A stretch of 64,000 nt of DNA from positions 27,592,001 through 27,656,000 of the forward strand of contig NC_087436.1 in assembly GCF_036321535.1 (NCBI RefSeq), read 5' to 3'. Numbering within the stretch: the first letter of the stretch is position 1; each line of letters starts with the position of its first letter. Of this stretch, positions 8,341 through 53,647 are shown piece after piece. The translations under genes and the position numbers were made by a program. The notes under the pieces are model-generated. The model had not been told where the DNA came from. It saw only the letters and a list, made by a program, of their open reading frames with translations, and ran no database searches. This stretch comes from Camelus dromedarius. Lineage: Eukaryota.

Positions 8341-8567
8341 TTTAAGGAAACTTAAATTTAAGAGCTCAGAATTGATTTAATAAAAGGGCTTCAAGAATAC
8401 TGAATTATAATGGAAAATGATACATTTGTGTATAATGTTTTCCTTTTAAATAAAAAATGATGCATTAGTTTCTGTAGATATAACAAGGTATAATCACAAT
8501 GCTTTAACTCTTTCATTCTTTAATATGCATATGCAAATTGCTGGTCATAGGTATAAAATTAAGTGGT

Positions 8568-9529: not shown

Positions 9530-11255
9530 TAGCCCAAGGCAATCTACAGATTTAACGTAATCCCTATCAAATTCCTGAGGACATATTCCACAGAACTAAA
9601 ACAAATCATAATAAAATTTATTTGGAACCACAAAAGACCTAGAATTGCCAAAATATTACTGAAGAAAAAGAGAGGCTGGAGGAATAACTCTCCTAGACTT
9701 CAGACAATATTATAGAGCTACAGTAACCAAAACAGCATGGTATTGGTACAAAAACAGACATATGGACCAACGGAACAGAATAGAGAGCCCAGAAATGAAC
9801 CCACAAACTTTTGGTCAACTAATCTTCGACAAAGGAGGCAAGAATATACAATGGAATAAAGACAGTGTCTTCAGCAAATGCTGTTGGGAAAACTGGATAG
9901 CAGCATGTAAATAATGAAGTTAGAACACTCCCTTACATCATACAAAAAAAAAAAAAAACTCAAAATGGATCAAAGACTTAAACATAAGATATAATAAACC
10001 TCCTAGAAGAAAATATAGGCAAAACATTATCTCACATACATCTCAGAAATGTTCTCCTAGGGCAGTCTACCCAAGCAATAGAAATAAAAACAAGAATAAA
10101 CAAATGGGACGTAATTAAATTTACAAGCTTCTATGCAGCAAAGGAAACCATAAGTTAAACAAAACAACAATCTATGGAATGGGATAAAAATTTTGCAAAT
10201 GATGAAACAGACAAAGGCTTGATCTCCAGAATATATAAGCAGCTCATATGACTTAATAAGAAAAAAACAAACAACCCAATTCAAAAATGGGCCAAAGACC
10301 TAAGCAAGCAATTCTCCAAGGAAGAAGTACAATTGATCGATAGGCACATGAAAAAATGTTCAATATCACTAATTATCAGAGAAATGCAAATCAAAAATAC
10401 AACAAGGTATCACCTCACACCAGTCAGAATGGCCATCATTCAAAAGTTCACAAATGACAAATGCTGGAGAGGCTGTGGAGAAAAGGAAACCCTCCTTCAC
10501 TGCTGGTGGGAATGCAGTTTGGTGCAGCCACTGTGGAAAATAGTATGGAGATTCCTCAAAAGACTAGGAATAGACTTACCATATGACCTGGGAATCCTGC
10601 TCCTGGGCATATATCCAGAAGGAACCCTACTTCAAAAAGACACCTGCACCCCAATGTTCATAGCAGCACTATTTACAATAGTCAAGACATAGAAACAGCC
10701 TAAATATCCATCAACAGATGACTGGATAAAGAAGATGTGCTATATTTATACAATGGAATACTATTCAGCCATAAAAACCAACAACATAATGCCATTTGTA
10801 GCAACATGGATATTCCTGGAGAATGTCATTCTAAGTGAAGTAAGCCAGAAAGATTAAGAAAAATACATATGAGATCGCTCATATGTGGAATCTAAAAAAG
10901 AAAAAGAACATAAATACAAAACAGTAACAGACTTGCAGACATAGAATACAAACTTGTGGTTGCCAAGGCAGAAGAGGGTGGGAAGGCATAGACTAGGAGT
11001 TCAAAATTTGTAGATACTGACAGGCATATGTTGAATAGATTAACAAGATTATAGTGTATAGCACAGGGAAATACATTCAAGATATTGTGGTAGCTCACAG
11101 CAAAAAAAAAAAGTGACAATGAATATATGTATGTTCATCTATAACTGAAAAATTGTGCCCTACACTGGAATTTGACAACAGCATTCTAAAATGACTATAA
11201 TAAAAAAGTTTGAAAAAAATAATACGATAAGAAATATATATATAAAACTAAAAAC
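9530..11255 (+). mobile_element. LINE-1, 5'-truncated, different 3' UTR subfamily; ORF2 disrupted
   Basis: ORF2 text from CCCAAGGCAATCTACAGATTT. ORF 10333-10692 matches the ORF2p C-terminus. Its 3' UTR differs from those at 9200-9529 and 18030-18368. A-rich tail at ~11200-11255. Confidence 0.95.
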
Positions 11256-14200: not shown

Positions 14201-14429
14201 TATATTTGTTTACTATAGAAAATACGCTGTCACGTTGCCCATTTGTGAGATAAGAGAACCAAAATGTTAATTTTTCTGCCCCTAATAAATGACACAGCTG
14301 CATTCCATGGTATGCTTTTAAAATTCTCAGTATTTCCATACTTAAGTGGTGTTTAGAAAATGTATTATGCAGAAACGTCTGCAGCTACTGATTCTGAGAG
14401 AGAGATGGACAGAATTTCAGTCTCATCTC

Positions 14430-14595
14430 AAGAAAGAAGAGGAAGAAAGGAATAAGATGGAGGAGGGTAAGATGATGAAATGAAATGTGAGGAAAAGGAA
14501 GTAGAGATGAGAAAAAAGAGGGAAAAACAAGGAAAAGGAAGAGGGGAAGAGGAAGGGGGAAGAGACAGAAGAGAGTTGAAAAGGTAAATGAAAAC
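14430..14595. repeat. GA-rich low-complexity polypurine tract
   Basis: Largely A/G over ~160 bp. Confidence 0.7.
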
Positions 14596-15717
14596 CAGTC
14601 ATTTTTAAAATGATATGTTTTTAGTATTAACTCAGAAGCCAATGGAAACCAACTGAGAAGACATCAATGACCTACTTACAATTCTCTTGTTAATGAAATA
14701 ATTTAAGAAGAGGCAATATAACATCACTACTGAAACCAAGGGCTTTGAAGTTTTAAATCTATTGGCCATGGGAAGGTTACTTATATTTATTGTAATTCAG
14801 TTTCTCTATCTTAATAATTGGGATGATAAGATTTGCTCTACTGTTACTGTGAAAAGGAATTGACAAAATTGACCATATAGTGTGGTAATCAGTACATAGT
14901 AAGTGCCTCGATATAAACAGGAAAAAAATTAGCAAGAATATCTACAAACATCTATGTTAAAATCAGACATAGTATACTAGAGAAAAAAAGCAAGTGGGAG
15001 TTGAAAAAGTATTAATTTTAGCACCAACTCTGTTACAATCTCAGTGTTTTTTTAAAACTATTCTGAGTCATTTAAGAAATCAGTTTAGATATCTGTAAGT
15101 GGATGGGATATTTTCATAATTTAAAACCATTATTTTAATTCTCATTTCATAAATAGCCATATTTACCACCAAAGTATAAAAATAGATAAATGCATTATTA
15201 ATATTCTGGGTACCATTCTTTCTAACTTAAAATTAATATGATTTTTTTATCTATCTTATATTCTATTTGTTTTTTCACTCTCAACTGATAGTCTTATTCC
15301 ATTATATTGAATTAGATGAACTCAAAGCCAGAATTATATTAAATCTGTTTTTGAATTTATTGATTAGGTAATCTAGGACAAATTAACTTTCCATGCATCA
15401 ATTTCTTTATTTCTAAATGATAGCATATACTCTGATTATATAAAAATTATATGTATTAGAATAGTAGCTGGACTATAGTAACTACAGGGTAAACATTTGC
15501 TTTTATACTTAGTTGTTACTGCTGTTGCTGAAGTCTGTACTGCTGCTAATTGGTGAAGATGATGAAAATAGTCATTGAGTAGAGTTAGAGAAGCTGGCAT
15601 TTTAAGAAATGGATTAAAATTTGAGCTATCTTCATTTGTAGCTTGGAGTTTTTAGAACAGAATGGCAAGTCAATAGTTAGAATATACAGTAATAAAAAGC
15701 AAATGGTAATAAAAAGC

Positions 15718-18368
15718 AAACTCTTCCAAAAGATTGAAGAGAATACTCCCAAACTCATCTATAAAGTCACAATCACCCTGATAACAAAGCCAGACAAATA
15801 CACAACCAAAAAAGAAAACTATAAGCCAATATCACTGATGAACATAGATGCAAAAATCCTCAACAAAATACCAGCAAACAGAATCCAACAACACATAAAA
15901 AAGATTATACACCATGACCAAATTGGATTCATCCCAGGGACTCAAGGATGGTTCAACACATGCAAATCAATCAATGTGATACAGCAAATCAACAAGAGAA
16001 AGGACAAAAACAACATGATCATCTCAATAGATGCAGAAAAAGTACTTGATAAAATTCAACAGTCATTTATGATAAAAACTCTAACCAAAGTGGGTACAAA
16101 GGGAACAGATCTCAACGTAACAAAAGCTCTTTACGACAAACCTACAGCCAGCACAATACTCAACAGTGAAAACTTGAAGGCCTTCCCACTAAAATCCAGA
16201 ACAAGACAAGGATTCCCACTCTCACATTTCTATTCAATATACTATTGGAAGTCCTAGCCATAAAAATTAGACAAGAAAAAGAAATGAAAGGGATCCAAAT
16301 TGGAAGAAAACATGCAAAATTGTCACTATATGTGGATGACATGATATTATACAGAAACCCCTAAAGGCTCCACACAAAAACTACTAGAGCTGATAAAATG
16401 ATTTGGCAAGGTAGCAGGATACAAGATTAACATACAGAAATCAGTGGCATTTCTTTATACTAACAATGAAATATCAGAAAAGGAAAGTAAATGAACAATT
16501 CCTTTTAAAATTGCATCAAAAAAAAAGTACTTAGGAATAAATCTGACCAAGAAAGTGAAAGGCTTATACACAGAGAACTAAAAAACACTGATTAAGGAAA
16601 TAAAAGATGATTTAAAGAAATGGAAAGATATCCCATGTTCTTCAATTGAAAGAATACTGTAAAAATGGCCATACTACCCAAAACAACCTACAGATTTAAT
16701 ATGATCCCTATCAAATTACCCAGGAAATTTTTCACAGAAATAGAACAAATAATCTTAAAAGTTATATGGAATTGGAAAAGACCCAGAATTGCTGAAGCAC
16801 TATTGAAGAAAAAGAATGAAGCTGGAGGAATAACCCTCCCAGACTTCAGACAATACTACAGAGCTACAGCAATCAAAACAGCATGGTACTGATACAAAAA
16901 CAGACATATGGATCAATGGAACAGAATAGAGAGCCCAGAAATAAGCCCACAAACTTTTGGTCAATTAATCTTTAACAAAGGAGGCAAAAACATACAATAG
17001 AGTAAAGACAGTCTCTTTAGCAAATAGTGCTGGGGAAACTGGACAGCTGCATGTAAATCAATGAAGCTAGAATTGATTTACACAATATACAAAATAAACT
17101 TAAAATGACTTAAAGACTTAAACATAAGACAAGACTCTATAAACCTCTTAAAAGAAAACATAGGCATAACATCATCTGACAAACTTTAGCAATGTTCTAG
17201 GGCAGTCTACCTAAGCAATAGAAATAGAAGTAAAAATAAACAAATGGGACCTAATTAAACTTATAAGATTTTGCACAGCAGAGGAAACCATAAACAAAAC
17301 AAAAAGAAAACCTATGGAATGGGAGAAAATATTTGCAAATGATGAGACTGGCAAGGGCTTAATTTCCAGAATATATAAACACCTTATACAACTTAAGAAA
17401 AAAAGCAAACAACCCAATCCAAAAATGGGCAGAAGACCTAAACAAACAATTCTCCAATACAGACATAAAAATAGCCAATAGGCATATGAAAAAATGCTCA
17501 ATATCACTAATTATCAGAGAAATGCAGATCAAAACTACAACGAAATTATCACCTCACACCAGTCAGAATGGCCATCATTCAAAAGTCCACTAATGATAAA
17601 TGCTGGAGAAGGTGTGGAGAAAAGGGAACCCTCCTACATTGTTGGTGGGAATGTAGTTGGTGCAGTCATTATGGAAAACAGTACGGAGATTCCTCAAAAG
17701 ACTAAAAATAGATTTACCATATGATCCAGCAATTCCACTTCTGGGCATGTATCTAGAGGGAACCTTAATTCAAAAAGATACCTGCACCCCAATGTTCACA
17801 GCAGTACTATTTACAATAGGCAAGACATGGAAACAACCTAAATGTCCATTGACAGATGACTGGATAAAGAAGCTATGGTATATTCATACAATGGAATACT
17901 ATTCAGCCATAATAAATAATAAACTAATGCCATTTGCAGCAACATGGATGGACCTGGAGATTGTCATTCTAAGTGAAGTAAGCCAGAAAGAGAAAGAAAA
18001 ATATCATATGATATCACTTATATGTGGAACCTAAAAAAAAAAAAAAAAAGACAAAAGAACTTATTTACAAAACAGAAACAGACTCACAGACATAGAAAAC
18101 AAACTTACGGTTACCAGAAGAGGAAGGGGTGGGAAGAGATAAATTGGGACTATGAGATTTGCAAATACTAACTAATATATATAAAATAGATAAACAACAA
18201 GTTTATACTGTATAGCACAGAGAACTCTACCCAATATCTTATAGTAACCGATAATGAAAAATACAAAAATGAATATATGTATGTATAAGTATGACTGAAA
18301 CATTATGCTGTACACCAGAAATTGACACAACATTGTAAACTGACTATACTTCAATTAAAAAAAAAAAA
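15718..18368 (+). mobile_element. LINE-1, 5'-truncated ~2.65 kb (RT domain to poly(A)); pseudogenised ORF2
   Basis: ORF 15643-16257 has [21 protein letters not shown]...[10 protein letters not shown]...ISIDAEK. RT YVDD motif at 16329-16340. C-terminal ORF at 17657-18034. Several stops and frameshifts, and a poly(A) tail. Confidence 0.97.
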
Positions 18369-27589: not shown

Positions 27590-30500
27590 TCCCCTTCCAT
27601 TCACTCCAGGTAACTTAAATGACTGAGTACTGAATTGTGTTGTTTGGGCAGTGAATTCTATGGGCGTGAGTATACTGCTATACTTCTTTTGCTATGAAAT
27701 CTGTTCCTTGTTTGGAAACATGTTCAGAACATCAGGACAATGAACAAGGCAATCAACAGGTCTTAGATGGCAATGCTGGCAGAATCACGGCCATCAGGGC
27801 ATAGAAATGGTGGTTACTAGAATAGATGCCTATAGAGAGGCCAAGTTGTTGCCTCTTGCATGACAGAAGACATCCAATGGAAAGAGTTCAACATAATCAA
27901 CTTGCCACCAGTGGGGTGAACGATCCCCCCGGGAGAATGGTGCCATAGCAGAGCATAGACTTGACTTCTGCTTTTTCCACGTCTGGCCTTCAGCCATGTC
28001 AGTAAACCAGATTTTGATGAGGACAAATTTTGTTTGTCGAGCTCATGCTTAACCTCAAACTCTGCTACCATGGCCACTTTGCACATAGATTCATCCCGTA
28101 AGCACCAGGATGGCTGATGATAAAAGCAGGCTAATACCCCAAAGATGAACCACATGGCCCACCTGAACATTGAGGGATCCCTCTGCAATGCAGCGATGTA
28201 TGTAAACTTTCATAAGGGCCACAAACATCTGCAAACTTGGTGCTCATTATGAGAAACCCAACCATATATTCCTTCAACATATCCTTTTGTCAAATCTCAC
28301 AATTTCTTTCTAGTCGCTTACTAACTAGCCAAACCAAGAGGCCTTGCAAATTATTTAGTTATGTCTTTTCTCCTTCCATGTGAAATGCATAACTGGATGT
28401 CCTGCTAAAATCCTGCCTCCAGAAGTATTTTCCTTTACCGTTGTCCTTTAGGGCCAGCCGTGCAAGGGGCTGAAGTGCTGTAAGAGCCTACGTCTACCTG
28501 ATGGCAGGATTTCATACCTGCCCAAGAAATACTTCTTCCCTCAACTCTTGACAGTTTATCGTTCCTGAGGTGGTAGTGCGGGAAAAGGCCAGAGCAGCTA
28601 TGCGCTGTGGGAGGTGTTGTGAGAGTCTGAGTCGTCCACTGAAAACTTGTTTCAGCCCTATTTGTGCACAGTCTCACCTCCATTTCATACTGCAGAGATG
28701 CTATTCACACCGAGTTTTGTGGGAGAAAAATAAATCAGTGCATAAGATGCTGCTTTGATCAAATACCACTTGGAGTCCCGAATAAATCATAAAATCACTA
28801 ACGAGGCCCAGGAATGAGACCTAAGAGGATTATTTATCAGCTAAGGAATAAATTATATGAAAACTCCTATGCTGTGATTCTCCTCTTAGGAATTGACTGC
28901 TACTTTGTACCCACCAGAAACGTGTGGGACACCATTGGATATGTTGTGCATAAGGTCTGCCAAGAAACTTGCACTGCAACCTGGACTTGACATACTTCTT
29001 TGGTTTTTCACACTCTTAGAAGCTAGAAATCTCTCAAATTACTGGAGGAATAGTTTGACGAAGCTCACCCAGATATGATACATTTTACTTCTAAAATCTT
29101 GAGAGGCTTACTTAACATTGTATCTCCTTCTAATTGGCAAGTGGTACAAGATGCAGTAAGTTATTTTCAAATTTAGAAGCTAGCCCCTTCCTCCTTAAAG
29201 GAGGGTTCACCAAAAGCAGCACCAGCATTACCCAGTAGCTTGTGAAGAATGCAGCATCTCAAGCTTTATCACAGACCTACTCTATCACAATATGCACATT
29301 TACAAAATCCTCCATGATTTGTGTGTATGCACATTTGAGCTTGAAAAGCATAGTACTTGACCACTAAATGGAATTTCACTATCATAGAAAACTCCTAAAT
29401 TTTGAGGTTTTACCTTTCACCCTTAGGCATATATGTTTTGCTAAAATATCTCAGTTATTTACTACCCCTACTCACCACATCAAAATATCATGACATTATT
29501 CATGGAGTTGGCAAGAGTGATGTTAAATGGCTTGTCTGGACAATCAATAACTCCATGCACCATATTTTGACAGACTAGAATAGAGGCATGGTCCTAAATT
29601 CGTATCATGAAGATCTACTGCTCTCCCTTTTCGTGAATGTAAGCTACTTCTGGAAGTCCTTGCTAATGTATGCGAAGAGTGATATAATTGCCAAGCCAAT
29701 AGCCCAAACTCATTTGCTCCAAGGTACCAAAACTAGAATGGTAGCTGCAACTGGATTCACCATTTCATTAAATTTAAGATGATGAAAAGCTATTTTCCTG
29801 CTAACCATCAATGTAGTAGATAGTATCACCCTCAAATATTGGATAGTTTTGTCTTTGCTTTACTCCTTTGATAGGAAGGGTCAGGTCCAGGGGTTCTTAA
29901 GTGACTCTTCCTAACAATAATTAAAACACTCAGTGTCCTGGGGATTATATTCATTGTTGTGTATAATCCCTTTTAAGAACTAGGGGAAAGCAGAAGATTG
30001 ACAGGTAAATCTAATTGGCCTACTCTTAATATAAAAACTCTAAAACCTCTCTGATCACCAGAGAACTCTGATGTTCATTGGGCCATACGCTGAAAGATGG
30101 ACCACCCAGTGTCAACCCAGAGAGATAGTATCTAACAATCCTCCCAAAGTATGAATATTTACATTTCCTCAGAACAAAGTCAACTGGTATCATCTGCTAA
30201 GTCCCTCTGAGGAAGGCTTAAAAAGAGATCTACAATACACATTTATGTCAATAGAGCCAGATTCTTCTTCAATTGAAACTAGGCTATTTCGCAAAGCATT
30301 TTGGGCCTATGAATTCGTTTGAATTTGGAAAGTTTTGCAAGACCTTCATTTTCGATTGCAATCATTCAAATTTGATGCCTACTCATCCACTTCAGGAAAA
30401 AAAATATATTTCTAATTATACAGGCCAAATTATGTTTTATTACTCTACACAACTATTTCTCTACATTCCTGATATAGGTTGTTAAGGCCCTGATATAAAT

Positions 30501-30770
30501 TGTTAAGATCATGGAACACATTTACTTAACTCACTATGTCTCCCTGGGAAGACCTTTTAATTCTTCTCTTCCCTCCAGGTACACAGGAATCTGACCTCTA
30601 GTTATAAGCCTGGTGGCGATGAGGAGATGAAGTGAATCTTGGGGAGACTGGGTGGTCCATTGGAAGGCAAAGTCCCCAGGAGAGGGGCTCCAGAGTTTTC
30701 AGGCAGAGAAAGGCCAGTTTCCTTCCAAGTGGAGGGAGAACTGAGCCAGAAGAAGGAAAGGAAATAAACC
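27590..30770 (-). mobile_element. Decayed ERVL/MaLR internal region (gag-pol remnants)
   Basis: Minus strand 27910-27878 translates WWQVDYVELFP, preceded by a frameshifted YGTI, matching ERVL integrase YGTIP...WWQVDYIGPLP. RNase H-like LQPL...KDNGKGK text near 28420-28480. The right extent is less certain. Confidence 0.7.
29195..29355. mobile_element. MER5-type hAT-Charlie DNA transposon relic
   Basis: CAGCATTACCCAGTAGCTTGTGAAGAATGCAGCATCTC...AGACCTACT...ATGCACATTTGAGCTTGAAAAGCA. Confidence 0.7.
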
Positions 30771-31180
30771 TCAATACTTTCACTGTGCATGTATTGAATT
30801 ATAACTTGAGACTAATTTATTCATAGCTTAAATGATTTTGTGGAATAAATAGGAATGTGTCAGAAAAATGCATTTATTTTTCTCCTTGGAAATAGTCAGA
30901 AATTTAGAGAGAATTAAAAAAAACACAGGTATCTTCTTGACACTTTCAAGATTTCTATTTATAATAAAGATTAATATGTCTGCAGAAATAATAAACAGAC
31001 TTGATTATGATATGCTGTATTAGTTATATTTACTAATAAAGAGAGGAGCTATATTCTGAAATCTTTCTCTTCTAAATGTTCTTGTTGCATTTTTAGGAAT
31101 AAGAAAATGCTTATTTCCTTTTTCAAGTAAATAAATTGTAACCGGCCCATTACCTGAAGCAGCCATAAGACTAAACTCCC

Positions 31181-31310
31181 ATCCCCTCCTCCTGTCACAG
31201 CCCAGGGTCTATGCATCCCCTCCTTACTGTCATAGATCAAGTTCTGAGGGTCCCTTCCCTGTTGTCACAGCCCGGGGCCTGAGTGTTCCCTCCTTCCTCT
31301 CACAGGCTGA
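31181..31310. repeat. Degenerate 35-bp minisatellite, ~4 copies
   Basis: Core TGTCACAG variants at 31193, 31228, 31263 and 31298 (exact 35-bp period), each preceded by CCCCTCCT-like text. Confidence 0.85.
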
Positions 31311-32279
31311 GGGCCCTTGGTGGTAGGCTAGGGTTAAGGCACTGGACTTACTGGGTACCGAGGACCCATCACCCCAACAGAAAGGAGAACCCACTTTAAC
31401 CACAATCAACCACTTCTAAGGAGATACAAATGAAGATTGGGGGGTCAGAACTGTGTCCCGTACTGGAAAGCTTGGTGATGTAGAAGCCCCCTCTCCACTG
31501 CAAATCCTGGGTCTTCACCTGTCCATCCACCTGAACTCCCTCTTGAGCCTCTGTGCCTCAGTTTCCCCGGCTGTGAGGTGAACTAAGGCCCTCTCAATGA
31601 TGCTGAAGGTGACCTGAAAGTCCAGAAATCTCCTCACCCTCTGTGTCTAGGAAATGGCTTCCTGCAAAGACCTTTCCCCACAAAGACTCAGCCGAAACTC
31701 ATGGTCCCCCGTTTTCTGACCTGGCCACACAGACGCAGTCCCTCCCAGCCAGGAGTTGACCTGCTCTTTCCCAGGATCAGCCAGAACAGGGGCTGGTTAC
31801 ACACAAGTTCCCTCCTCGCCAGCCAGAACTGCAGCCCCTGCCCTCTGCCTGAGCAGACGCGCTGCTCAGGGCACCTCCTGAGTCAGGGCCTCTGGTCCAC
31901 GTGCTGTCAAGCCACCTTTCACGCCAACTCCAGGCCTGGGCCTTTATATTTGTGTTGACTTCTCTCCACTGAGAAACCTCCTTGCCCCCAACTCTCCAGA
32001 TGCTTGCAGACCTTGTCACCTGACCACTGAGTGTCCTGTCCCCAGACCTGTTTCTTCAGAATTTGGGTCATTTTGTATAAAGTCCCTCCTCCTCCCATTT
32101 TCCCCAGCCTGAGGTGGTGGTGAGTTCACCAACTGTGGGAGGAAAACCATTCAGTCCTCTCAGACACCAGTCCTGTAGTTGCCAGGCACACACCTCCTCC
32201 CAGGTGCACAGGTGTGGGTCAGCTGTCCTCTCCCTTGACTGCAGACCCTAGCTCTCTGGTTTCCAAGTACAGACTCAGG

Positions 32280-33400
32280 AGTGCTCGGCACTAGTGCAAA
32301 CCCAGGACGGCCCAGGCAATTCCAATTCCCACTGCAGCTCCAACCCCGAGCACTGGGACAGCACACCTGAGCGCAAGCCGGGGCAGGTGCACACCCTGAC
32401 GCCTCCCCCACGGAGCGCGCGCCCTGCCTCAGCTGGATCCACTCAACTTCTCGCTTTCTCAATCAACATGGGACTCGGGAGCACTAGGGGCGAATTTCAC
32501 AAAACGCAGAGGGTGCAGGGTGAGTTAAGTGTCCAGACCCACTGACCCATCCTGGCCAGGTAAGCCACCTGAACCGCCCACGTATGACTCCAGAGGGACG
32601 CCCCTTCTGTCCCCACACACAATTGCAGGTGGTGACTGGCACGCAGTAAACACTCAGGGAATAGTTCTCAGGTGAGTGAATGGATGGAAGTGCACATAGC
32701 TGGCAAACCCACGGGCCATGTTCACATCCACCTCACCTGGGCCCGGAACGCGCACCTATCTCCTCAAAAGCTCGGTGCTGACAACAGCCAGTCCCCTGAA
32801 CCCTCAGTGGGCCCCCAAACGCTTGCTGGGCCCACAAACGCTGACCCACACAAACCCGCCGCAAAGGCCCTCTGCGCGGGGACACTAGCCTGTGAGGGAC
32901 GCTTACCCCTCCTCCCTACCCCACCCTCGCCGTGGGCCCCGGCCCTCAGCCCCTCCTGCTGCTCCTCCAGCCTCTGGGTCCTGGGGAGCAAGGAGGGTAC
33001 AGGACCTGCGGGACCCGGACGCGGACCACCCTTGACGCCCCCCCCCCACCTCCGCCCCCACCCAGGAAGGCGCCTGCCGCATCTCGCCGGGGACTCTGGA
33101 TTCAGACAGACTTGGCACTCACCGCAGCCGCGGCTCCCACCTCCTCTCCGGGCCTCTCCCGCCGCCGGCGCCTGAGGCGCGTCCTAAATCACTCTCGGCC
33201 ACGTGACTGCAGGCCACGCCCACTCCCGAGGAGCCGGAGGGGAGGAGGAAGTGGCGGAGCGCCTCCCAGAGCTGACTTGCCCCAACCCCAGGACTGGAGG
33301 CAACCCTCCAACTCCAGAGGGGACTTGACTGTGGCGACTACACTGCCTGGCTGGGAGCCACACGTCCTCACAGCCAACGGTCTGCAGGGACCTGACCCTC
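32280..33400 (-). promoter_or_regulatory. CpG island/promoter with candidate minus-strand first exon (~33200-33123)
   Basis: Dense CpG and high GC. E-box CACGTG at 33200-33205, SP/KLF box GGCCACGCCC at 33212-33221, ETS GGAAGT at 33247-33252. Consensus donor GCG|GTGAGT at 33122-33117 on the minus strand. Confidence 0.75.
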
Positions 33401-33401
33401 A

Positions 33402-33582
33402 CAGGGTACATGAGGATGTTCTGATTGTGACCATGGCATCTAGAGGTCAGATTCAGATGATAGGGTGTGAGAATGCACTAAGTGTGACCACAGGGTCCAA
33501 GGGTCAGAGGATGGGGACATCAGGACGTCCTGAGTGTGTCCACGGTGCCCAGCGGTCAGAGGACAGGTATGTGAGGATGACC
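33402..33582. repeat. Degenerate ~52-57 bp tandem repeat, ~3.3 copies
   Basis: GGTCAG anchors at 33445, 33502 and 33554, each preceded by GAGGATG...TGTGACCA-like text. Confidence 0.75.
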
Positions 33583-35659
33583 GTGCTCTGGCCACCGTCC
33601 ATCATTGCAGTCACTGGACCCCAAGGCCAGAGCAAACAAGACTGTCACCCCAGGGCTGGGCTGCACCATCCCTTAGACGTCCATGCCTGTGACCTCTGAG
33701 CATGTTGGCCAGCAAGAGCCCAGGTCCTCCACCAAAGTGCTAGCCCTTCTGTCCTGAGTGCCCCTCGTCCCGGCACTGACCACACAGCCCAGGAGGGTCG
33801 GTCCCTAGCATCGGTCATCTACTCAGAGAAGGGCCTGGTACACCTGTGTCCCCCATACTGGCTGGAGGCCAACGGAAGAGTGGACAAATGTTGGGGCAGC
33901 TCAGAGGGCTGACTGGGTTGAGTTCTCCAGGTGGTCTCTCTCCTCCTCTGACCAGCATCCTCAGCCCTCAGTCACCACTGCAGATGGGCTTGGGGCAAGC
34001 TGTCCTCTTACGAGGACAGAGGCTCAGCCTCCCAACAGCACCAGTTGGCTCCTCACTTCCTTCCCCCATCCAAACTCAGACCCCATCGGCTCCCTCCCTC
34101 CTTCCCCCCAATTCCCACCCCTCACATTTCCTGCCCCTCCTCCCTCTGTTTCCTTCCCTCCCTCCCACCCTCACTGCCCCGCCCTCACTGCCCCGGGCTC
34201 TCCTCTCTGCCCCTCTTCACAGCTCAGGGCCCCAGGTGGAGACCCCTCCCCTGTTTCCCGCTGATTGCAGAATAGTCTCTACCACCCTCCCTCCCATCTG
34301 AGCAAAGCTTCCTGACAGCTGGCTTCCTATGTGAGTTCTCCTCCTGCCCTTCCCCCTCCTACCTCCAGCGGGCAGAATTGTGGCCCAAAGTTGTTCAAAT
34401 CTCCAGAGGTGGGCTCTGCACCCAGGCAGCCCCAGCCATGTCCCCAGGCATGAAGAACTTGGTGCTCTCACTAGCCAGCTTTCATTTACTCTCTGTCGAC
34501 GTTTATCTGTTTCTGTCTTCAGGTTTGGGGTTTGGGGGCCGACTGACTTCGACAGGAGACAGTCTTTGTAAAGTGGTGAAAGGTTTACAAAGCAGACCAG
34601 AGCAGGAGCTCCTCCAGATCTGGAATTCCAGCTGACTGGGAGGTGCACACACAGTCCTGGCTACAGTGTCTGGGGGCATGAGTTTGCCTCCACCCTGGAG
34701 CAGCTCCTGGATGCCCGATTTAGGTGTCCTCCACCCCAGTGCCCAGCTAACCATTCCACTTCATGCTCAAATTTCCAGTGGAGCCCCACTGTCACCAACT
34801 GTCCTCTGGTAACACCCAGGCACACAGGTGACTGGGGCTGCATTAAAATGCTTAACACTGATAGAAACAAATGATAAAAGCACTCACATTCAAATAAGTA
34901 GGTTACCATTTTTCCCGGACCAAGTAAATGAAAGTGAAACTACAAGGCAGCACTGGTGGTGGGTAGAGGGACGGGAACCACAGACAAGGCTGCAGGACAA
35001 ACTCCCCAGCGGGGATGGGGGTGGGGGTTGTCCAAATGGATCTTACATTCTGGAAGTTCTTAAAATGTTTTCCCGGAGAGAACTCATCCAAGGAGACCAA
35101 TAAAAATGCAGATAGAGGCTGCATGTAGAGGCGTTTACTGCAGCATCAGGAAAAACAGATGATATCACTTTGGGCAGATTTAAGTCCTGACAGATGAGGC
35201 CAGCAGAGACCCACAGCCACTACGTGGAGTTTTTTAAAGATATGGGGGAAATTCTGGCATGCGATTCATTTCACGTTTATTATTTTTAAATGCACTAGTG
35301 GTATTTTGGATAACTGGCCACTGCGCTAAACTATTATTAGTTGCAATAAGGTTTAAGTTTCATTCTCCTAGATTTTCCAGGCAGGTAGTCATCTGACCTG
35401 TGAAATAATGATAAATTTGCCTCCTTTTTTCTGATATGACAGTGACACGTCCATGTGCCCTGTCCAGTAGTTTCCAGGTAAAGAGGAATATGACAGCTGC
35501 TACCTTTGACTGCCCTGTTCCTGAATTTCACCACAAGGCTGTGATTTCATACTAATAATGGAAAGACTTGCTACATCATGTGGAGGAAGTATAGTTCTCT
35601 TTGAAAGACAGTAGAATCCCCGTCTTTAATTTAGTTTTCCATTAAACATTGACATTCTC

Positions 35660-35848
35660 TTTTGGAGAATGGGGAGTTAATGTTTAATGGAATTGAGTTT
35701 CTGTTTGGGATGATGGAAAAGTCCTAGGGATGGACAGTGGAGATGCTTCCATAACATCATGAATGCACTTAATGCTGCCAAACTGTACATTTAAAAATCG
35801 TGAAGTGGTAAATTTTGTTATGTGTATTTTACCACAATTATAAAACTA
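35660..35848 (+). mobile_element. L1MB-type 3' UTR end
   Basis: GGGAGTTAATGTTTAATGG...TGGGATGATGGAAAAGT...TTATGTGTATTTTACCACAAT. Confidence 0.8.
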
Positions 35849-37316
35849 TCAAGAGTTGATGTAGAGTTTTAGCAATTGTCTTTCACCATCTGTTGACATG
35901 AATGTGAGGTGATTCTTGCTTTTGCTCAGTTGATGTAACAGTATTTTAGTAAGTGCCCTAACACAGGGCCCCCTTGCTTTCTGCGGTGACCTTGTGTGGC
36001 TGAGTGTCAGGACTGTGACCTGCTGTGGACCCCACCTCCATGCCTTCTACTTAGGACTTGGCAAAGATATTCATAATGACATGGGTTTGGAGTTGCCTTT
36101 TCCTGTTTCGCCATCTTTTAGTATCGATATTACCTTTGAAAGTGGAAATAGGGGGCATTTCATCTCCATGCTCTGCAAGAGATTGAATAGACAGCAGTAG
36201 TCTGCTCCTCCCCCTCATCTGGGTGCCAAGCACACTGCCCAAGGGCAGCTGTTTGATGTGAATCTTCCAAGCTATTCTCTGTTTAGATGTGCACTTGTTC
36301 TTGGGGAAATTACTGTAATTCCCACTTTCCTTAAATTTTTCCTATTTTTTTAAGAGATTCAAACATATTGGCACAAGATCCCACATAGTCTTAATCAGTT
36401 CATGATTTTAAAGAATCTCCTCTATGAATGTGGTTATATTTCCTTCTCTTTCTCCCCCAAATTGTGTAATTGTGTTTCTCAATTAGCTTTGCTAAAGATT
36501 TGTGTGTGTCTACATACGTATGTAAATTTCAGGATATACCAGCTTATGTATTCTATTACTTTATGTTGTGTGATCCATTTTGCATTATCTGTTGTTAACC
36601 TATTAGACAACAGCATGTACATAAGATGCTGTTATTAATCTTTTGCTTTCTTTAGGTTTTGCTTTTTCTACATTTCTGGGTTGGCATTCTATAAGTGCTG
36701 AAATATTTTAGCCTCATTTACCTTGATTTCTGTAAGTTGGTTAGTATGAGTGATTTCCTTTCTCATGCAGCCCTCAGTCGGGCTCCCAGACAGAAGGGCC
36801 AGAGGCCCGGCCTCACCTGCAGCTTCCTCATTAAGCTGTGACCACTGGGAAGCAGGAGGAAGGCTGGACACATCTCCAGGCTGCTGTGTCCAGGGACCAG
36901 GCCCTGAAACACCTCCTGAGATGCTCTGTGGAGGGTTGTGACGGGGCAGACAAGCAGGAATTGTCCATCAACTGTCCTTCCTGCTGGCCTAGGGGACCCT
37001 CTGGCTGCCTACCAAGCCAGCCACTGAACAGTGTGGGTGCCTGTGGGTATGAGGCATCCCAGTGTCCACAGGGTTCAGGAGACAAATCTGAGCAGAGATG
37101 AACAAGAGCTGAAGGGGAGAGGGCAGATTTGAGTCAGAAATGTGCTTGCAGTAAAAGGGGGCCCAGCATGAAGGGACAACCATGGATTTGTGCAGAGGTG
37201 GCCGGTGCTTTAAAGGGAGGGTGAGGGAGAGGCGGGCAGGCAGTCAGAGACTAAAAACTCACACAGGATCAGTGAGTATAAGTGGGAGGAAGCAGTGGTG
37301 TCCAGTGGCAGTTACT

Positions 37317-37370
37317 GGGTAGGGGTTGGGGTTAGGCTTAGGGTTGGGGGTTAGGCTTAGGGTTAGTGTT
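37317..37370 (+). repeat. Interstitial telomere-like repeat, degenerate (TTAGGG)n
   Basis: TAGGGG TTGGGG TTAGGC TTAGGG TTGGGGG TTAGGC TTAGGG TTAGTG. Confidence 0.8.
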
Positions 37371-37559
37371 AAAGACAAGTAATAACATAAGGTAATGTAA
37401 ACTGTATAAGTTCCATAGTAACAAATAACAAAACTAATACAAACAGAAGGGAAAGAGAAGCACTCAAACTCACTAATTAATACATAAGTAATAAATGGAC
37501 AGAGAAGATAACATTTTAGATGAGAAAAAAAAGCTTATGTTGAGATAAATTCACAGGTG

Positions 37560-40500
37560 GATGCAAAACAGGCTTTCTTCCTGTGAAGAGAGATGTCAGT
37601 TGAAGCCCCACTGGACAGAATTTATTTTCATGTGCATAACCAAGAAGAATTTTGTATTACTATTGGTTATCTACAACTCACAGGGTTGTAAAATATCTCA
37701 AAGGCAACTGACTGATCAGATAGCTCCAGTAGGATGTGTTCTATCACTGCATTTTTTCATTAGAGATGCCCAGTAATCTTTTTGTTTATTCTGACTTTCC
37801 TAACAGTATTTCCTCCTTTTTATCAGAATAATTCCAAACAAATATTATTCTTGATTGCAAAATAAGGAGGGATTTATTATGCATGGATTGAGTATTTAAA
37901 TAGGTGCAGCAAGAGCATTAATTTCCCTACTTGCCTTCTTATATTTGCTATGCTGAATGCTTTCATAAGGACTCTCTGATTTGACTTTTAAAAACCTCTA
38001 TTATTTGCTATCACAAAACTAGGAAGCCAAGCTCAATAAACTCCTCCAGATTTCACCTGCGGTTTTTATAATTTGTGTGAATCTCTACTTCTTGAAATCT
38101 CTAAAATGTCCTAAAGATCCTTGACTTGCCAAGTGATCTCTCTTATCATCTGCAAGGCTGAGAATTGTATGCCAGGCCGCAGTCCAGTTTTCTTGTTGGG
38201 GCTTTGTCAGCTTTTGTTCCACAAGGTAAACCATACTTTTAAAAAAATTATTCATCATATCTGATTAAATAATTAGCATCGTCAAATAATTTTGAAGGCA
38301 GGGCTTTTGTTGCTTTATCTTTCTAATTTATCCTCTTGGTAAGACAGGATAATCTATCACTGAACATTACTGTTATTGTATAATCATTACTAAAAAAGCA
38401 TAAGAAAATTCAGTAAGAATTTTCTGAGTTGTTGAAAGAAATTTTTCAAGCAATTTTAGGATTACAATAAAAGTGTAGAATAGAGATTTCCCATATAACC
38501 CCTGCCTCCACATATGCATAAGTTTCCCCAAAATCAAAATCACTCACCAGACTGGTACAATTTTTTGAAAAGGATGAACCTACACTGACACATCATAATC
38601 ACCCAAAGTTCATAGCTTACCTTAGGGGTCACTCTTGGTATTGTACATCCTATGAATCTGGACAAATATATATCCATTATTATAATATCATACAGAGTAT
38701 TTTCACTACAATATAAATCCTCTGTGCTCTGTGGGAAAGCTTAAAGTTACTCACAATTAAGTATGATGCTAGCTGTAGGGTTTCAGTAGTCAGATACATA
38801 TTTTAAATGTTTCATTTCAGTTTTCAAATGCAGAGATTATTAAATAGTTATGGGTTGGAGACAGCTTAAGAAGAAAAAGAATCTCATATATTCATAAAAT
38901 AGAATGTTGAAATAATGCCAACAATATTCTCAAAAAATGACATAATCAAGTTTCCTTCATCAGTTCATTAGGCCTTATGTAATTAATTCTTGTTCTTCTG
39001 GATCTTGGGTTAACATTAACACCAGAGTTGGAAATCCTGACATCACAATGGTATGATCTGAATGTTGTCTAAGCAGTAACATCAGAAGCCTAACCCAAAA
39101 TCTATTCTTTGAAGTGCTATTAATTTAAGATACCTAATAAGGTCCTTTACACACAGCTTTGAGATGGCCTTCCTTTGATGAAGAAAGAAACTCTGGCCTG
39201 TAGCTGACTACAGGACCTTTAGCCAGCACCAGAGTAAAATAAAATCTATGTGTAAAAGACAGTTACTAAATATAGTCATTGTTAGTTTATTACTGATTTA
39301 TTTGTATGTGTGAAATTTATGATAAAATAAACAACAAAAATAATACAAGTGACAAAGAAATGGATGTTTCTGTAGCATGGAAAATAAGGTAAAATACATA
39401 TTTGCAAAAAAGTCAGTGAGTAGTACAACTGATTTATAAAAATTTATTTTTTTATATTTATAGAGGAAAACTTTAAAACATAAAATAATCCTGAGGCATG
39501 GCATACATAATATACCAAGAACATACCAAAAAAAAAAAAATCTAAGAATAGATCAAGAATATCAGTTGAAATGATCAGTAAGTCTGGAGTAGAATCTTAA
39601 CACCTGAATTTGTATAAAATATTACAGATAATTTAGATATGCATCCCTATTTAAAAAGGACTAATTTATATGATGCTAAATTTAAATTAGGGAAATAAGA
39701 TTGAGGCTGAGTAAGCATTTTAAATAATAATTGATGTTATGTCTGGTAACATTTGACTCATTATCTACTATCAGACAACGAATTACCAAGACTCTAGGAC
39801 CCAGAAAGATTATGAACACTGACAGTTTCTGGGAAATTCCTTGTTTTGTCAAGAACACTAAAGGGTGTGGGGTGTCACCTCACTTACATAGCTATAGCCA
39901 GGGAAATAAGTTATTTATGGACACAACCAGATCAACAGCCTGAGTGACATCGTAGCATCTGTCCCCCATCTCTTAGTTCGAAAGATAATGTATGAGAAGA
40001 TCACACCCTGAAGATGAGGGACCAAAAACATCCTCTTTATATACCAGAGAGCAATTGCTGCCCCTCTCTACTCCCAAAATGAGATGGAAAAAACAAAAAC
40101 AAAAACAGAACTTCTGCTGTTTTGAGGACTGAAGAAAAGGATTTTCACTCTCATCTTTTTAGATATGAAAATAAATCATTCTAAGATCCAAATGAACAGG
40201 AGTATCACTGGCTTTTATAAGCTAGAGATGTCTCCTAATTCTGGGCTTCATCCTTTCTGACATGTAACCATCTGTGGGGTGTGTTTCAGTCCTTTTGGGG
40301 CCTTAACTGAGGACCCAGTACAGGCTGTAATCACAGAGCTGTCTAGGGGAGATAATAGAAGTTTATTATCCTTTTTTATCAGAGCATAGACAGATTATAA
40401 ATAACAGATCAGAGACAGAGCATAAATGACAATTCAGAGATAAATGACTACAGATCTAATCTCTCATGGTATATGAATACTAAAATATTTCTGGGAGAAG

Positions 40501-42400
40501 TGAAAGCAAGCATTTTCTAGCTTCACTTCATACATAAATACAACTTTTCAAAGTGGCAAAAATGAATTTTTTAATTAACATGGACCAAAGGCGTAGCCTT
40601 TTTTAGCCATATATAAATAAGAAACAAATTATGCAAACTGAAAATTACCTAGTAGTCAAAGTTTCTATGTTCTATTTTAGAAATTATCTGGATAGTCAAG
40701 GAGCATCCATTAGATAACTCAATTAAATCAGTCCAAGGTTTTAAGTTACCGAAAGAGCTTGAACATCATCTTTGAATTGAGATACTACATAACTTAATTA
40801 TTGTTGAATTTGTCATGATAATGGTTCAGTTTAGTTTAATACACATTTACATTTTTCATAACCTTACACATTTATAGGAATAATGTTATTTATTTGACCA
40901 GTAAACCTGTGTAAATTTAGTAAAATTACACCCAAGTAGAATAATCATACTGAGTATAAAAAAAAAAGCCATTCTACTTAAATTAATTAATAAGAGAAGG
41001 CAGTTATTTTTGTTAAACCAAAATTAGTGAATTATATTTTGCCAGTTTTACCTAATTTATGTGAATTTGAATTCTTTAAGTTTTGAGTTAGTTTATATAA
41101 AAACACTGTTTTTGTCTTTTAATTATAGTATACTTAAATTGCTAGAAGTACAATTTCCCTATTATCTCTGAATTTTAGAAATGTAATATTTTTATAAGTG
41201 CTTATTTTTCTCTTTTAAGTCCATTAGAACAGCACTCCTTTACTTTAAGAGTCTATATATGGGCTTATTTCTTAAAACCCTTTGAAGGCAATAAAACATT
41301 ACATATTTATACTATAAGATGTAAAAACCTTTCTGAATTACAGACATACTTACAGACAGATAACATAGCTATAATTTTATACTTTCAGCCTTGAGCCAAT
41401 AGCAAGCATAAATACAAGAGTTCACTAAGACATAAAGGAATTGTTCTTAACAATTCTTAATTGTTCTTAAATCAAAAGTATCTGATAGATTTGAGCTTAA
41501 GCTAGACAAGCAGACCAACAAAGAGGGCTAATAATTCAATTCTCTACCACTTTTCTCAAGCAGTTAATAAATCTCTATAAACTATTAACACATTTACAGA
41601 GATCATAAAACGAGTAAGCTATAAATTCAAATTCCTAATCACTGCTTGTGACTTATTGGCCATTAAAAAAAGAGAAGCTACATAGAAAAGAAAACCGAAA
41701 TTGGAAAAAGAGAGCAAAATTCTGTCGCTATTTGAATTCACTTCAAGGAGTTAAGAAAAGCTGTACCTGGGGCCTGAGTGTCCCATAAGAGATGCATGTA
41801 TCAGGGAACAGTATTGGTCTAGTTTTACCAGGTAGATGAATCCAGTGGGAATCTCAGTGGAAGACTTCCAAAATTGTTAAAGAATAATTTTCCAAAAAAA
41901 AAAAAATAAATAAAATAAAATTACAAGTCTCATACAGGTATATAAGATGAACTTTTGAACTCTCCTTAAAGATTTATTTAACTCAGTATTAATGAAGGAG
42001 CCAGGAGACTTTGCGGCCAAGTCAAAAGGGAATGGAAAGAAACAAATTTATTTTGAATAAATAAATATTGAAATAAATTTACAAACAAATAACTGATTTT
42101 TTCCAAGAGTAGCATGAAGAGAAGAGAAGAAAGTTAATTAACTCTCCACTGAATAGAATTTATTTGCATGGTCAGAGGTAAGAGTTACTTTGCATAACTT
42201 TCAGCTACCTACAGTTTATAAAGTTGTAAATTAGTTTAAAGGCAATCAAAGTCTAGAATCGGTGAATCTGGAAGGATAGTCTCAAATCAATGCATAATAT
42301 TCCATTGGAGACAGTAATTTTTTTTGCTTATTCAAAAATGTCTTTATGAGATACATAAATAAACAAAAATTGTGTTCTTGTATGTACCTTGCAATGCTGT
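37560..42400 (-). mobile_element. Probable decayed ERV1 (MER4-group) non-autonomous internal sequence with nested repeats
   Basis: Segments such as CCAAGTGATCTCTCTTATCATCTGCAAGGCTG and CTGGATAGTCAAGGAGCATCCATTAGATAACTCAAT resemble MER4-group internals. Recognition only, with no protein motif. Confidence 0.45.
38440..38732 (-). mobile_element. L1MC1-type 3' end
   Basis: GATGAACCTACACTGACACATCATAATCACCCAAAGTTCATAG...AAATCCTCTGTGCTCT. Confidence 0.8.
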
Positions 42401-48752: not shown

Positions 48753-51519
48753 ACATGGCTTCTTAATTACACATACACATACATTTCTGGACCAAATCCA
48801 CTTACCTAGAGGAAATTATTTCAAATTTTTTTTTAATCAGACTTGTCTGTTGTTTATACTCTCTTATCTAAATAATACTAAATAATAGTTTTCTATTCTA
48901 CCTTTTTGAGTTTTGCAATTTTAGGTAGTATTTATTGACTTCCAACCATGGACACTCTTTTTAGAACCACCTATTTATTTAGCTTCTTTTTATGGAGTGA
49001 ATAATAATATATTTTAGTTCTTCTATTAATGTCTGTTGTATTTTTTTCCCATGAGTTATTTCTGTTCTCTGAATAGTTCTTTAAAAATCACTTTGTTCAA
49101 AATATGGAGAAATAAGCAGATTACAAATTAAAATTCAAAATTAACAACTGCAAATCAGTGGTTTTTAAGCTGTGTTCTGGTTGGTATGGGGCTAGGGATA
49201 TGGGACTCACTCTGCTCAGACTTCCCCCTTATTATCAGTGCCCTATTGTCTCCAAACTATCAAAGAAATCCCAGCTTTCATATCTTGACCTTCCGTAGTA
49301 GAAAGACCTTAAAGAAAGATTTGAATTAACATGTGTGGAGATGGTAACAGAGCATTTCATATAAGTGGAAAGATTTCAGTTCCAAGCCCCTATAAACTCA
49401 TCCCAGTTATCTAAGTCTATTTCCTGAATTACTCCTTGTCACAAACCATGAATAAAGACAGATCCCGATGGACAGATGCGCCTCTGATTCTCTTTTAAAA
49501 GGTATTCTTGTGCAGACACATCTAATCGGCTTCCTACTAATCTCTTTTCTTTCACCCCTCTGGCCCTCATTTGTTTTTTGAAATAATAACTTGGGAACTA
49601 TGCTTAATGGAGATTTCTGGAGTGTCTTGTAAAATCAGAGATTCTGGCTACATTGGATTTCCCTAAGTGAATGACTGACTGGGCCTGCCGGCCAGTTTTC
49701 TCCTTTATCCCAGGAAAAGGCAGAGCTGTTGAGTCCTTGCCACTAGCCGGACACGTGTTTACGTGTATCTCCCTGCCGTGGCTCCGTGGCGCGCGCTTCC
49801 CAGCTGTGCCGGCAGGCTTCTGAAACACTTAGGATTTTAACCATTCTTTTTCTAGTCGTGTTTCTCCCTTTCTCAACTGATATGATTTCTCCATACATTT
49901 AAATCCTCAGATTTCTACATATTTGTATACATTTTTCATACAGTTCTTTGTCCTTTCTCTCATTCTCATTGGTAGTTATGAAGCAGAATAAGTATTTTTA
50001 TTCAGTAGTTATGAAGAATACAATGAGAATTACATAAAAAATAGTTTCCTCTTCTTTTTATCAATCTTCTTATTTTACCAACGAGGTCTTATAGTGAGAT
50101 TTTTTAATTGAAATTAAGTAAAGGTTAGCAAACGTATTTTTACATGAATTTTTTTCTCTTCACATAAAGGTCAAATTACACTAAACTCTTTATGTGTGAC
50201 TTTCATACTATATTTCATTGCAAAGTCTAAATTCTTTATTTTTTAGTAAACTTTAAAATATCAAATATATCCTCATAAATAAATCTATAACAGCCATTTT
50301 ATAATTTATTCTAATGGTAATCAAGGGTATTTTACCTCCATTATCCCTGCACTACAATTGACTTGGCAGGAGTACCTTACTGAGATGCTAATGGAAATAC
50401 AGCTTTCTCTCTTAAGGCTGATGCAGGCTTCAATATGCTCAGATACAGACAAGTGAAAAAAGAGCTACTGTGTAAATTCAAGTAACTTGATTGAAAACAG
50501 GCTAAGCAAACAGTTTTTATTGTTTTCAGCTCAGTAACTGAGTGGTACTTACAATTTGGAGTGAGAGAATATTAATTTCAAGGGAAAAATAAAACTTTTT
50601 ATAGAGTATTTCCTTCCAGTTTTTATTTAAAATATTTGATATAATATTTGATGAGTTTTTAAAATTTACTCAAATCTCTATAATCTTTAGGAAACCTCTA
50701 AATCTTTATGGAAGTGGTATATACTCAATATCTATCCTACTCACCATAACAGGCTCTGAATCAGCCTCACAAGTCTATCGATGCTAAATGCTTTCAGATG
50801 GAGAATTTTATGATTTAATCTGAATAAATCTAGATTAATAGATTAAGTAAAAGTCCAAGAACTTTTAATGGTAATACACTCCTAATGTTCTCAGTTGAAA
50901 TATATTTGGAAAAGTAAAATTCACATTTGACCCCCTTCTCCTTCATTATTTATACAACTTTGCTTTAGTAACTCCCTCCTTTCTTAAATAACCAAACCAG
51001 AGCATTATAAGGAAAGCATAAGAAATGTAACTTAAATCATCAATTGTCTTCAAAGAAGGATGGACACTGCTAAGCAGTGTATCAAAGGATGCTGTATCCT
51101 ACCAAAAACGTGCCCTCTTTTGTTCGCCTGAACATCTGCAAAGCTTTTGCTAACAGAAATATGGCCCTGGTCCTTAATTAGGGATAAAAGTCTAAAGAGA
51201 TATGATTTATTCATTGTAATCATGGGAGCTCTTAAGAGGAAAGGATACTAGGTTGCAAATCCTTATAAATATCCTTTACTTTCAACATCATATTTTAGGA
51301 CTTACTATAGGGTTCCTGAGTACAAATACCTGGAATGCCCTAAATAATATAGGATTGTCTTATGGCACACCTATTACTGCCTTACCTCATTGCTATTTAC
51401 ATATGCCAATTGACAGATTTGCATATAAGAAAATGATGTTCACATTCTTTAATTATTATCTTTCTCATAATTAGATAACAAAATATTCATCATTTAAAAT
51501 GTGAATGAACGAAAGTATA

Positions 51520-52330: not shown

Positions 52331-53500
52331 GAGTATTTAAAATGTTAATTCACATATATAATACACTGAAGTATATTTTTCAATTGTGAGATATAGTTAT
52401 TTAGTAAAATGTTGCAACTTGAAATCTGGGGCTGCCTCACTGATGAACACTGTCAGCTAATTTCATTCCTTGATTTATATAATAAATGATTCCTGAGCAC
52501 TTAGCCCACATTGGACATTTTTGTAGGAGAAAACTGCATAGCATAAATAAGATACATTAAAAAAGCAGGTGTTCATGTGTTTTTATTCTCCTGGAAGAGA
52601 AAACAAGGTAAAAACTCAGTGGATTTAAGAGGAATCAGGAAGAGTTCTAGAATTTTCATAAATTCTCATAAATTTACTTAAAAATTACAGAGAAAGTATG
52701 ACATGCTGATGGGTATAAATCATCTTCAGCTTCCTCTTTAAAATGAGAGACACCAAAAGGGCAGAAAATGGATAACTTAGAGTTATCCTAAGTCTGACTT
52801 AAAAGAAAGTCACATAACTTTAAACAGGATCCAGTTAAAAATATCATGGAAATCTTTTGAAAAATGACTTTATTTCAACTGGAAAGCTTTACAAGTCTCT
52901 CAAACTTGTGAGTTCATTGATCTCAGGGTCCTTTATCAATGAGGAAAGATTGCAGTGTTATCTGTCAAGAGTGAATCTATAAACACTTGTAAATCCTTGA
53001 AAAAAAAAAAAGAAGTCTGTTTTTCTTTTTTCTCTATAGTTTCAAGGTCAGAATATTTTGATGTCCCTGAATCAAGTTTATGGCTTAGTGAGCTATGAGA
53101 GCTCTGAGTTGGTTTTCTCAAGTGTCTTTAAACACAAATACAGTCATCCATTCATTCAATATTCTTGAGCCAACTTTATGCCAGGCGCCAACTATATGCT
53201 AGATCAAGAGGAAAGACAATTTTAAAATGTGTTCCATAATCTATCATCAGATTGCATTCAGCTAAATTCCATATCCTGATTCAGATCCTTCCATACCATT
53301 AAAGCTCACAAATTAAATGTTAGCAATGTGTTCCAGAGGCATATTGTCACACCGTATCCACAAATTGCTATCTGGTGAAAGAAACACACAATACTTCTCA
53401 TATGTAGAAATTATGAAAGAATTACTTTTAAATAGTTTTCCAATCTTAAAACTATTATAGAAAACAAAACATACATTTCTTCTGCAAGACTAGCATTGTG

Positions 53501-53647
53501 GTGGGGGGTGGGGTATGTATAATCCAGTGGTAGAGTGCATGCTTAGCATACACAGGGTCCAGGGTTCCATTCCTGGTACCTCCATTAAAACAAACAAACC
53601 TAATTGCCTCTCACCGCCCCCCTCCAGAAAAATTTAAAAACAACCCA
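53501..53647 (+). mobile_element. tRNA-derived SINE (camelid Vic-1 type)
   Basis: A-box-like CAGTGGTAGAG and B-box-like GGTTCCATTCC, then GTACCTCCATTAAAA...CCTAATTGCCTC and an A-rich tail. Perfect 15-bp TSD AAGACTAGCATTGTG at 53486-53500 and 53648-53662. Confidence 0.92.

Follow-up and report, generated by a model that had tools for sequence, protein, structure and literature searches.

A GC-rich, CpG island-bearing block with a telomere-like right edge in AT-rich DNA of Camelus dromedarius: features consistent with a DNA-level insertion

In human subtelomeres, internal telomere-like tracts mark the boundaries of duplicons, and copies of these duplicons occur outside subtelomeres too (Ambrosini et al., 2007, PMC2323237). 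Break repair can likewise insert telomeric repeats, sometimes together with other sequence, and deletions, added sequence or complex rearrangement frequently accompany these interstitial insertions (Nergadze 2007, PMC2246262; Santagostino 2020, PMC7215372). Dispersed copies of gene fragments are already known from alpaca, where NEK10-, ATF5- and FMN2-like blocks represent partial-gene duplications (PMC13751797). Here we describe a GC-rich block of about 6.2 kb at positions 31140-37370 of a 64,000-nucleotide stretch of Camelus dromedarius DNA (assembly GCF_036321535.1, contig NC_087436.1, positions 27,592,001 to 27,656,000, forward strand; called the window below). The block carries a CpG island and ends at a degenerate telomere-like tract. 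Our preferred reading, with a probability of roughly 60%, is that it was copied as DNA from a GC-rich and perhaps subtelomeric donor and then joined in by end-joining. A search of titles and abstract openings, with supplements and most subscription papers outside its reach, found no publication describing the locus.

The GC content of the window is 34.8% at positions 1-31139, 52.9% at 31140-37370 and 34.3% at 37371-64000. Maximum likelihood placed two outer change points at 31141 (31134-31177) and 37362 (37348-37371) and two inner ones at 34841 (34828-35033) and 36766 (36746-36778), the brackets giving 2-log-unit ranges. A step was favored over a 300-bp ramp by 5.2 log units at the left edge and by 3.3 at the right. 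In the 200 bp on each side, GC rises from 24% to 57% at the left edge and falls from 56% to 28% at the right. The abrupt switch from AT-rich to GC-rich DNA and back, reported in a preliminary description of this locus, is thus borne out by the change points and by the preference for steps. The less GC-rich interior that it had placed at 35250-36700 is present but slightly wider, at 34842-36766 (39.3% GC).

On the two sides of this interior lie the main GC-rich segment (31141-34841, about 58% GC) and a second one (36767-37322, 56% GC). Outside the island, the main segment has a CpG rho of 0.19-0.25 and a TpA rho of 0.39-0.46; the second has a CpG rho of 0.10 and shares the dinucleotide signature of the first. 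For all GC-rich parts outside the island the ranges are 0.10-0.25 (CpG) and 0.39-0.55 (TpA), compared with a flank TpA rho of about 0.8. GC-rich DNA depleted in CpG and TpA carries the signature of long methylation. The rest of the window is AT-rich (34-35% GC), CpG-depleted and mammalian, and one of the 565 windows of 600 bp outside the block has a GC content of at least 50%. The steps at the block edges (0.28 and 0.23) are comparable to those flanking short GC-richer patches elsewhere in the window (0.20-0.24), for example at 55255-55857 (about 600 bp). Sharp edges by themselves thus do not distinguish the block, but the length of its GC-rich run does. What is out of the ordinary is an uninterrupted GC-rich run of 3.7 kb, after which comes a second, similar segment of 0.6 kb.

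The interior contains old sequence derived from long interspersed element 1 (L1). The window also holds three related young L1 pieces on the plus strand within 8567-18366: two 3' pieces stand head to tail at 8567-11217, the second directly after the poly(A) of the first, and a third, longer piece spans about 15700-18366. A remnant of the reverse-transcriptase region of L1 ORF2 at 35860-36185 (minus strand) escaped tblastn. It aligns to the young L1 of the window with 63% identity over 317 columns (E 1.4e-4), at a score of 107.5 compared with at most 88.5 in 300 shuffles. The claim that the block has its own old repeats is supported by this remnant. Its GC content is 44%, versus 34% in the young L1, and its differences from the latter comprise 59 weak-to-strong and 27 strong-to-weak changes (p = 7e-4). 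Two L1 controls from the flanks gave ratios of 20:18 and 3:8 (pooled 23:26; Fisher p = 0.017 versus the remnant). This test is suggestive only, because the young L1 used as reference is not the ancestor of the remnant, the control with 3:8 is itself weakly matched (E 0.16) and the 20:18 control is a younger 3' end from another part of L1. It is suggestive of an interior that was AT-rich by ancestry and was pushed towards GC. Because the flank controls do not show this shift, the interior and the rest of the block probably have a common history.

If the interior were instead native flank DNA, separate events would have to account for the rest, with an insertion or promoter at 31141-34841 and an unrelated repeat or small insertion at 36767-37371. 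The GC content of the interior is equalled in 33 of 269 flank windows of the same size, a Markov score puts most of it in the flank range, and sharp-edged GC-richer patches of about 600 bp do occur elsewhere in the window. These observations would fit separate events, but the GC shift of the L1 remnant and the dinucleotide signature common to both GC-rich segments argue the other way, and we hold separate events to be quite improbable. A repeat that seemed common to 36209-36365 and the right flank (E 0.35) was lost with a two-copy profile and was rejected. The right flank has an old repeat in two diverged copies, 37593-37791 and 42131-42333 (E 1.6e-10); no third copy was found in the block, nor was any copy of the short interspersed element located at 53500-53644.

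The right edge of the block is formed by the telomere-like tract (37323-37371, plus strand, 49 bp), which Tandem Repeats Finder (TRF) described as 8.0 hexamers with 77% matches. Counted by eye, it consists of eight units with six differences from GGGTTA and contains a duplicated higher-order unit of 18/19 bp. Perfect TTAGGG, TTGGGG and TTAGGC each occur twice among the units, and GTAGGG stands immediately before the tract. The maximum score was 12 in 100 local shuffles and 13 in the flanks; the tract reached 18, which confirms that a telomere-like tract closes the block, and it overlaps the range of the right change point. Its G-rich strand points out of the block, in the orientation of a chromosome end. 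By repeat content (eight units, six differences) it resembles short interstitial telomeric sequences, and as a boundary tract with an outward G-strand it has the arrangement of a subterminal duplicon. TTGGGG and GTAGGG belong to the proximal-telomere variants described in PMC2323237 and PMC11293586; TTAGGC has no occurrence in the available text of PMC11293586 and is not among the variants named in that of PMC2323237. The tract may represent the edge of a subtelomere-type donor segment, or it could have been added by telomerase at a break and then decayed. The former is slightly preferred because the tract has variant repeats and points outward.

A faint telomere-like G-rich stretch of 33 bp at 31304-31336 (plus strand) resembles the right-hand tract, and the likeness was equalled by 4, 58 and 72 of 210 control pairs under three scoring schemes. 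The first 200 bp to the right of the tract (37363-37562) show a strong A skew (46-51% A) that is absent from the left flank; this is perhaps an old L1 piece truncated at the joint. Mixed TTAGGG/TTAGGC units like those of the window were also seen in two tracts of a contig from a viral collection (L017:490-537 and L018:227-274), the likeness being that of the repeat only. Matches to the telomere-like motif in the viral collection came to 11 loci, of which six were aligned, over the tract alone, and these were discarded.

No marks of retrotransposition were found at the joints. No poly(A) or poly(T) was found near either edge (longest A or T run at most 5), and no LTR (long terminal repeat)-like terminal pair of at least 30 bp was found among the repeat families shown or by self-BLAST, in agreement with the preliminary description. 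The left edge (31134-31177, best change point 31141) has no poly(T) and no significant target-site duplication. The 33-bp G-rich stretch is the sole end-to-end likeness in the block. A weak flank similarity pointed out earlier, CAAGTA(A)ATAA at 31124-31134 (plus strand) and 37376-37385, does exist but is at chance level: its score was reached by 18% of 5000 random and 46% of 5000 AT-matched flank pairs, and it was rejected as a target-site duplication. The block lacks the significant target-site duplication and the poly(A) expected of an L1 retrocopy or class 1 templated insertion. It also lacks the LTRs and the gag/pol/env-like Pfam matches of an LTR element or endogenous retrovirus, the Pfam scan for retroviral remnants having covered block open reading frames (ORFs) of at least 30 aa save one short interior stretch. 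What it does have are abrupt boundaries and old-repeat DNA kept without poly(A), as in a DNA-level insertion.

An unrecognised LTR element, or the L1-mediated capture of an unspliced RNA, is very unlikely in our judgment. The left edge starts with TGTAAC, which we take to resemble the start of many LTRs, and the stretch at 31304-31336 is faintly similar to the right tract, but the block has no terminal repeat pair, poly(A) or significant target-site duplication, and no Pfam match was obtained in its longer ORFs or in the 118 of 30-89 aa. RNA can be the source of class 2 templated insertions, which have neither poly(A) nor target-site duplication (Onozawa and Aplan 2016, PMC5110952), a point in favor of a retrocopy; the experimental ones, however, measure only 73-414 bp. 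A DNA template is favored over RNA because the block spans the promoter on both sides, which is unlikely for one RNA. From the lack of retrotransposition marks we infer that the block may have been captured at a double-strand break.

The promoter-like part of the block is centered on a marginal CpG island at 32701-33240 (540 bp, 69% GC, observed/expected (o/e) ratio 0.66), with a core at 33001-33200 (o/e 0.86). It is the sole segment of the window that passes, barely, the customary strict island criteria (at least 500 bp, at least 55% GC and o/e of at least 0.65), so that the island claimed for the block holds, though marginally. Promoter-type motifs lie at 33194-33262, with an E-box (CACGTG) at 33200 and GGAAGT at 33247; presumably these are sites for USF/TFE and ETS factors, respectively. 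A small CpG-rich patch elsewhere in the AT-rich DNA (49601-49890, o/e 0.64, 49% GC) is probably inside an LTR-like repeat. Two candidate exons on the minus strand were chosen by eye. The candidate non-coding first exon (33123-33190), with a guessed start, ends at a GTGAGT donor (GT at 33122-33121). The candidate second exon (31352-31415) has a CTGAC branch-like site, a pyrimidine tract and AG, and a GTAAGT donor. These candidates are consensus matches only. Both fell below the cut-offs of the splice scan; the 16 sites that did pass it, from both strands, were others, and the scan had no chance control.

The two minisatellites reported for the block were recovered as decayed repeats. Four 35-bp units are found at 31178-31317 (plus strand; lag 35, z up to 6.7; a repeat family of three copies with a spacing of 35) and a tandem repeat of about 52 bp at 33385-33700 (plus strand; lag 52, z 4.8). 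The period analysis of both was run without a shuffle control, and TRF at score 30 reports neither. Kinship between the two repeats was not detectable (shuffle fractions 0.22 and 0.17). The 35-bp unit may resemble MSR1. MSR1 is a repeat of 36-38 bp that is densest on human 19q (PMC4725990, PMC6112826). The block unit, at 35 bp, is of similar length, near a promoter and in GC-rich DNA.

No coding exon was detected in the block by Pfam analysis of its ORFs or by homologue searches. Among 59 window ORFs of at least 90 aa, the only convincing Pfam match was an L1 reverse transcriptase (15625-16254), with one further weak bacterial match (E 0.008). The 118 block ORFs of 30-89 aa gave no match, and ten block ORFs searched at E up to 10 gave nothing beyond one weak match (E 0.067). 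Homologue searches were blank for 32896-33696, 32636-33172 and, versus longer proteins, 34572-34871 (all plus strand). An HMMER match of 32767-33183 (minus strand) to a repetitive protein (E 5.9e-4, 29% identity) was rejected. A KRAB-like look of 36835-37098 (plus strand) was unsupported by Pfam, PDB and Atlas, and supposed likenesses to the 5' regions of KRAB-ZNF or MAGE genes were also discarded. Rfam and ARAGORN found nothing in the 64-kb window; a scan for bacterial promoters, which is not applicable to such DNA, was likewise empty. Metagenome matches to a 20-base pattern were dismissed, the nine loci all being CpG-rich DNA of non-vertebrates in which the similarity did not extend further. 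The promoter has no evident host gene, because no cellular-gene Pfam family appears in the 59 long ORFs. The region appears to be a gene desert on the basis of this ORF and Pfam scan, in which short exons can be missed. Because a promoter-type island and possible 5' exons are present with no detectable coding exon, the block most likely represents a gene fragment or a promoter that has been orphaned.

The same features could belong to an old, native CpG-island promoter that evolved in place and serves a distant gene or a long non-coding one, surrounded by a halo of GC-biased conversion, with the tract as a separate interstitial insertion. The block does hold the only CpG island of at least 500 bp in the window, with its E-box and GGAAGT, and prolonged local GC-biased conversion would yield an equal GC shift in the old L1. 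Short interstitial telomeric tracts are also common, with 229 in human and 142 in horse under a strict rule (PMC7215372). However, the edges of the block are stepped, not sloped, and the second GC-rich segment, 3.5-4 kb away from the island, ends exactly at the tract. The island itself is marginal, with no host gene detected in 64 kb. We regard a native promoter as doubtful, though as an explanation to be taken seriously.

The presence of the locus in sequencing runs was assessed with 855 sampled words from 30300-38450, runs being listed with the best holders first. The word share was 1.00 in 14 of the 24 listed runs (10 samples, 6 studies, one organism label). With eight possible-source rows excluded, six rows from four samples and three studies were still at 1.00. 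This shows that the sequence is present in the species. A share of 1.00 does not prove the joints, because it tolerates four missing words and about 3.2 sampled words span each joint; it would be obtained with p = 0.245 if both joints were absent and 0.79 if one were. These figures are compatible with a chimera in which the assembler joined GC-rich sequence from elsewhere, but the window contains no N bases, both flanks share one composition, and the rows at 1.00 include the six from samples outside the possible-source group. A chimera therefore strikes us as highly improbable. The six RNA or RNA-like rows had shares of 0.08-0.33, compared with 0.05-0.46 expected for random genome coverage (four below and two slightly above expectation), and gave no evidence of expression or habitat. 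Four small runs of one organism (labelled A) had shares of 0.00-0.01, which is no proof of absence.

The preliminary description had proposed a DNA-level duplication or translocation from a GC-rich region. The step edges, the CpG and TpA depletion, the GC-shifted L1, the lack of poly(A) and LTRs and the tract all support this proposal; the flank duplication, being at chance level, does not. In a DNA-level copy from a GC-rich donor, the fragment would have resided long in a GC-rich, methylated chromosomal region and would later have entered, as DNA, an AT-rich region poor in genes by duplication or translocation, a break there being closed by end-joining. Judging from the decay of the tract and the marginal state of the island, the event was probably not recent. 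Several points weigh against a DNA-level copy. Neither a donor copy nor an empty site was seen. The joints have no target-site duplication or templated sequence, and no templated or microhomology junction match was found (scores 7 and 9; controls 7-14). The flank scan was made with ORFs of at least 90 aa, so that a host gene with short exons may have escaped notice there. To these must be added, from above, the comparable steps at other patches, the flank-like composition of much of the interior, the non-ancestral reference and imperfect controls of the L1 test, and the equal L1 shift expected from local conversion.

A bolder version of the DNA-level copy is conceivable, but we think it unlikely. 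The block would have been an entire chromosome-end fragment, made up of promoter-bearing subtelomeric DNA and the variant-rich beginning of its telomere, or a broken fragment that telomerase had healed for a short time. It would have been reinserted into a gene desert in the germ line and fixed, with its promoter still firing into the flanks and producing lineage-specific transcripts. If true, a repaired break would here have been patched with kilobases of telomere-capped DNA, far more than in the interstitial inserts described in the available texts.

Other elements were noted in the flanks. The GC-richer patch of about 600 bp at 55255-55857, with edges nearly as sharp as those of the block, is possibly an old LTR-type repeat. 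The region 27700-30250 may be decayed internal sequence of ERVL type (minus strand); its single ORF of at least 90 aa has no Pfam match. Two patches with ends resembling poly(A) signals (59682-60504 and about 61500-61830) are presumably LTR-like.

In comparison with human subtelomeric duplicons, the block likewise ends at a degenerate, outward-pointing tract with the TTGGGG variant, but this tract is 49 bp long, whereas most human tracts measure 150-200 bp, and the block stands alone in AT-rich DNA while the human duplicons lie in a mosaic (PMC2323237). It resembles a dispersed duplication that has an internal telomere-like tract at its boundary and may be considered a candidate member of that group. 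As in interstitial telomeric sequences, the tract is of about the primate mean length (46 nt) and is located at a possible joint. The pieces co-inserted with those sequences, where a size is stated, are tens to hundreds of bases long, compared with 6.2 kb here, although the supplementary locus tables of those reports may hold larger ones (PMC2246262, PMC7215372). Class 2 templated insertions also consist of distant sequence that lacks poly(A), a target-site duplication and the L1 target preference, but the block is far longer than the experimental examples (PMC5110952). With the camelid partial-gene duplications it would share the copying of promoter-bearing gene fragments, as DNA, to new sites; the alpaca cases differ in that they involve identified genes and are mostly large or in many copies, whereas the block is without a coding exon (PMC13751797). 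If a DNA-level copy is correct, the block would be a further dispersed gene-fragment copy of this type in a camelid-type genome; it could then be used as a phylogenetic marker and would offer a small natural experiment on the rate at which GC-rich DNA and a CpG island decay after a move to AT-rich DNA. It would carry greater weight if the donor were a chromosome end with the tract, which would imply germ-line capture of a telomere-capped fragment, and also if the promoter were active at the new site.

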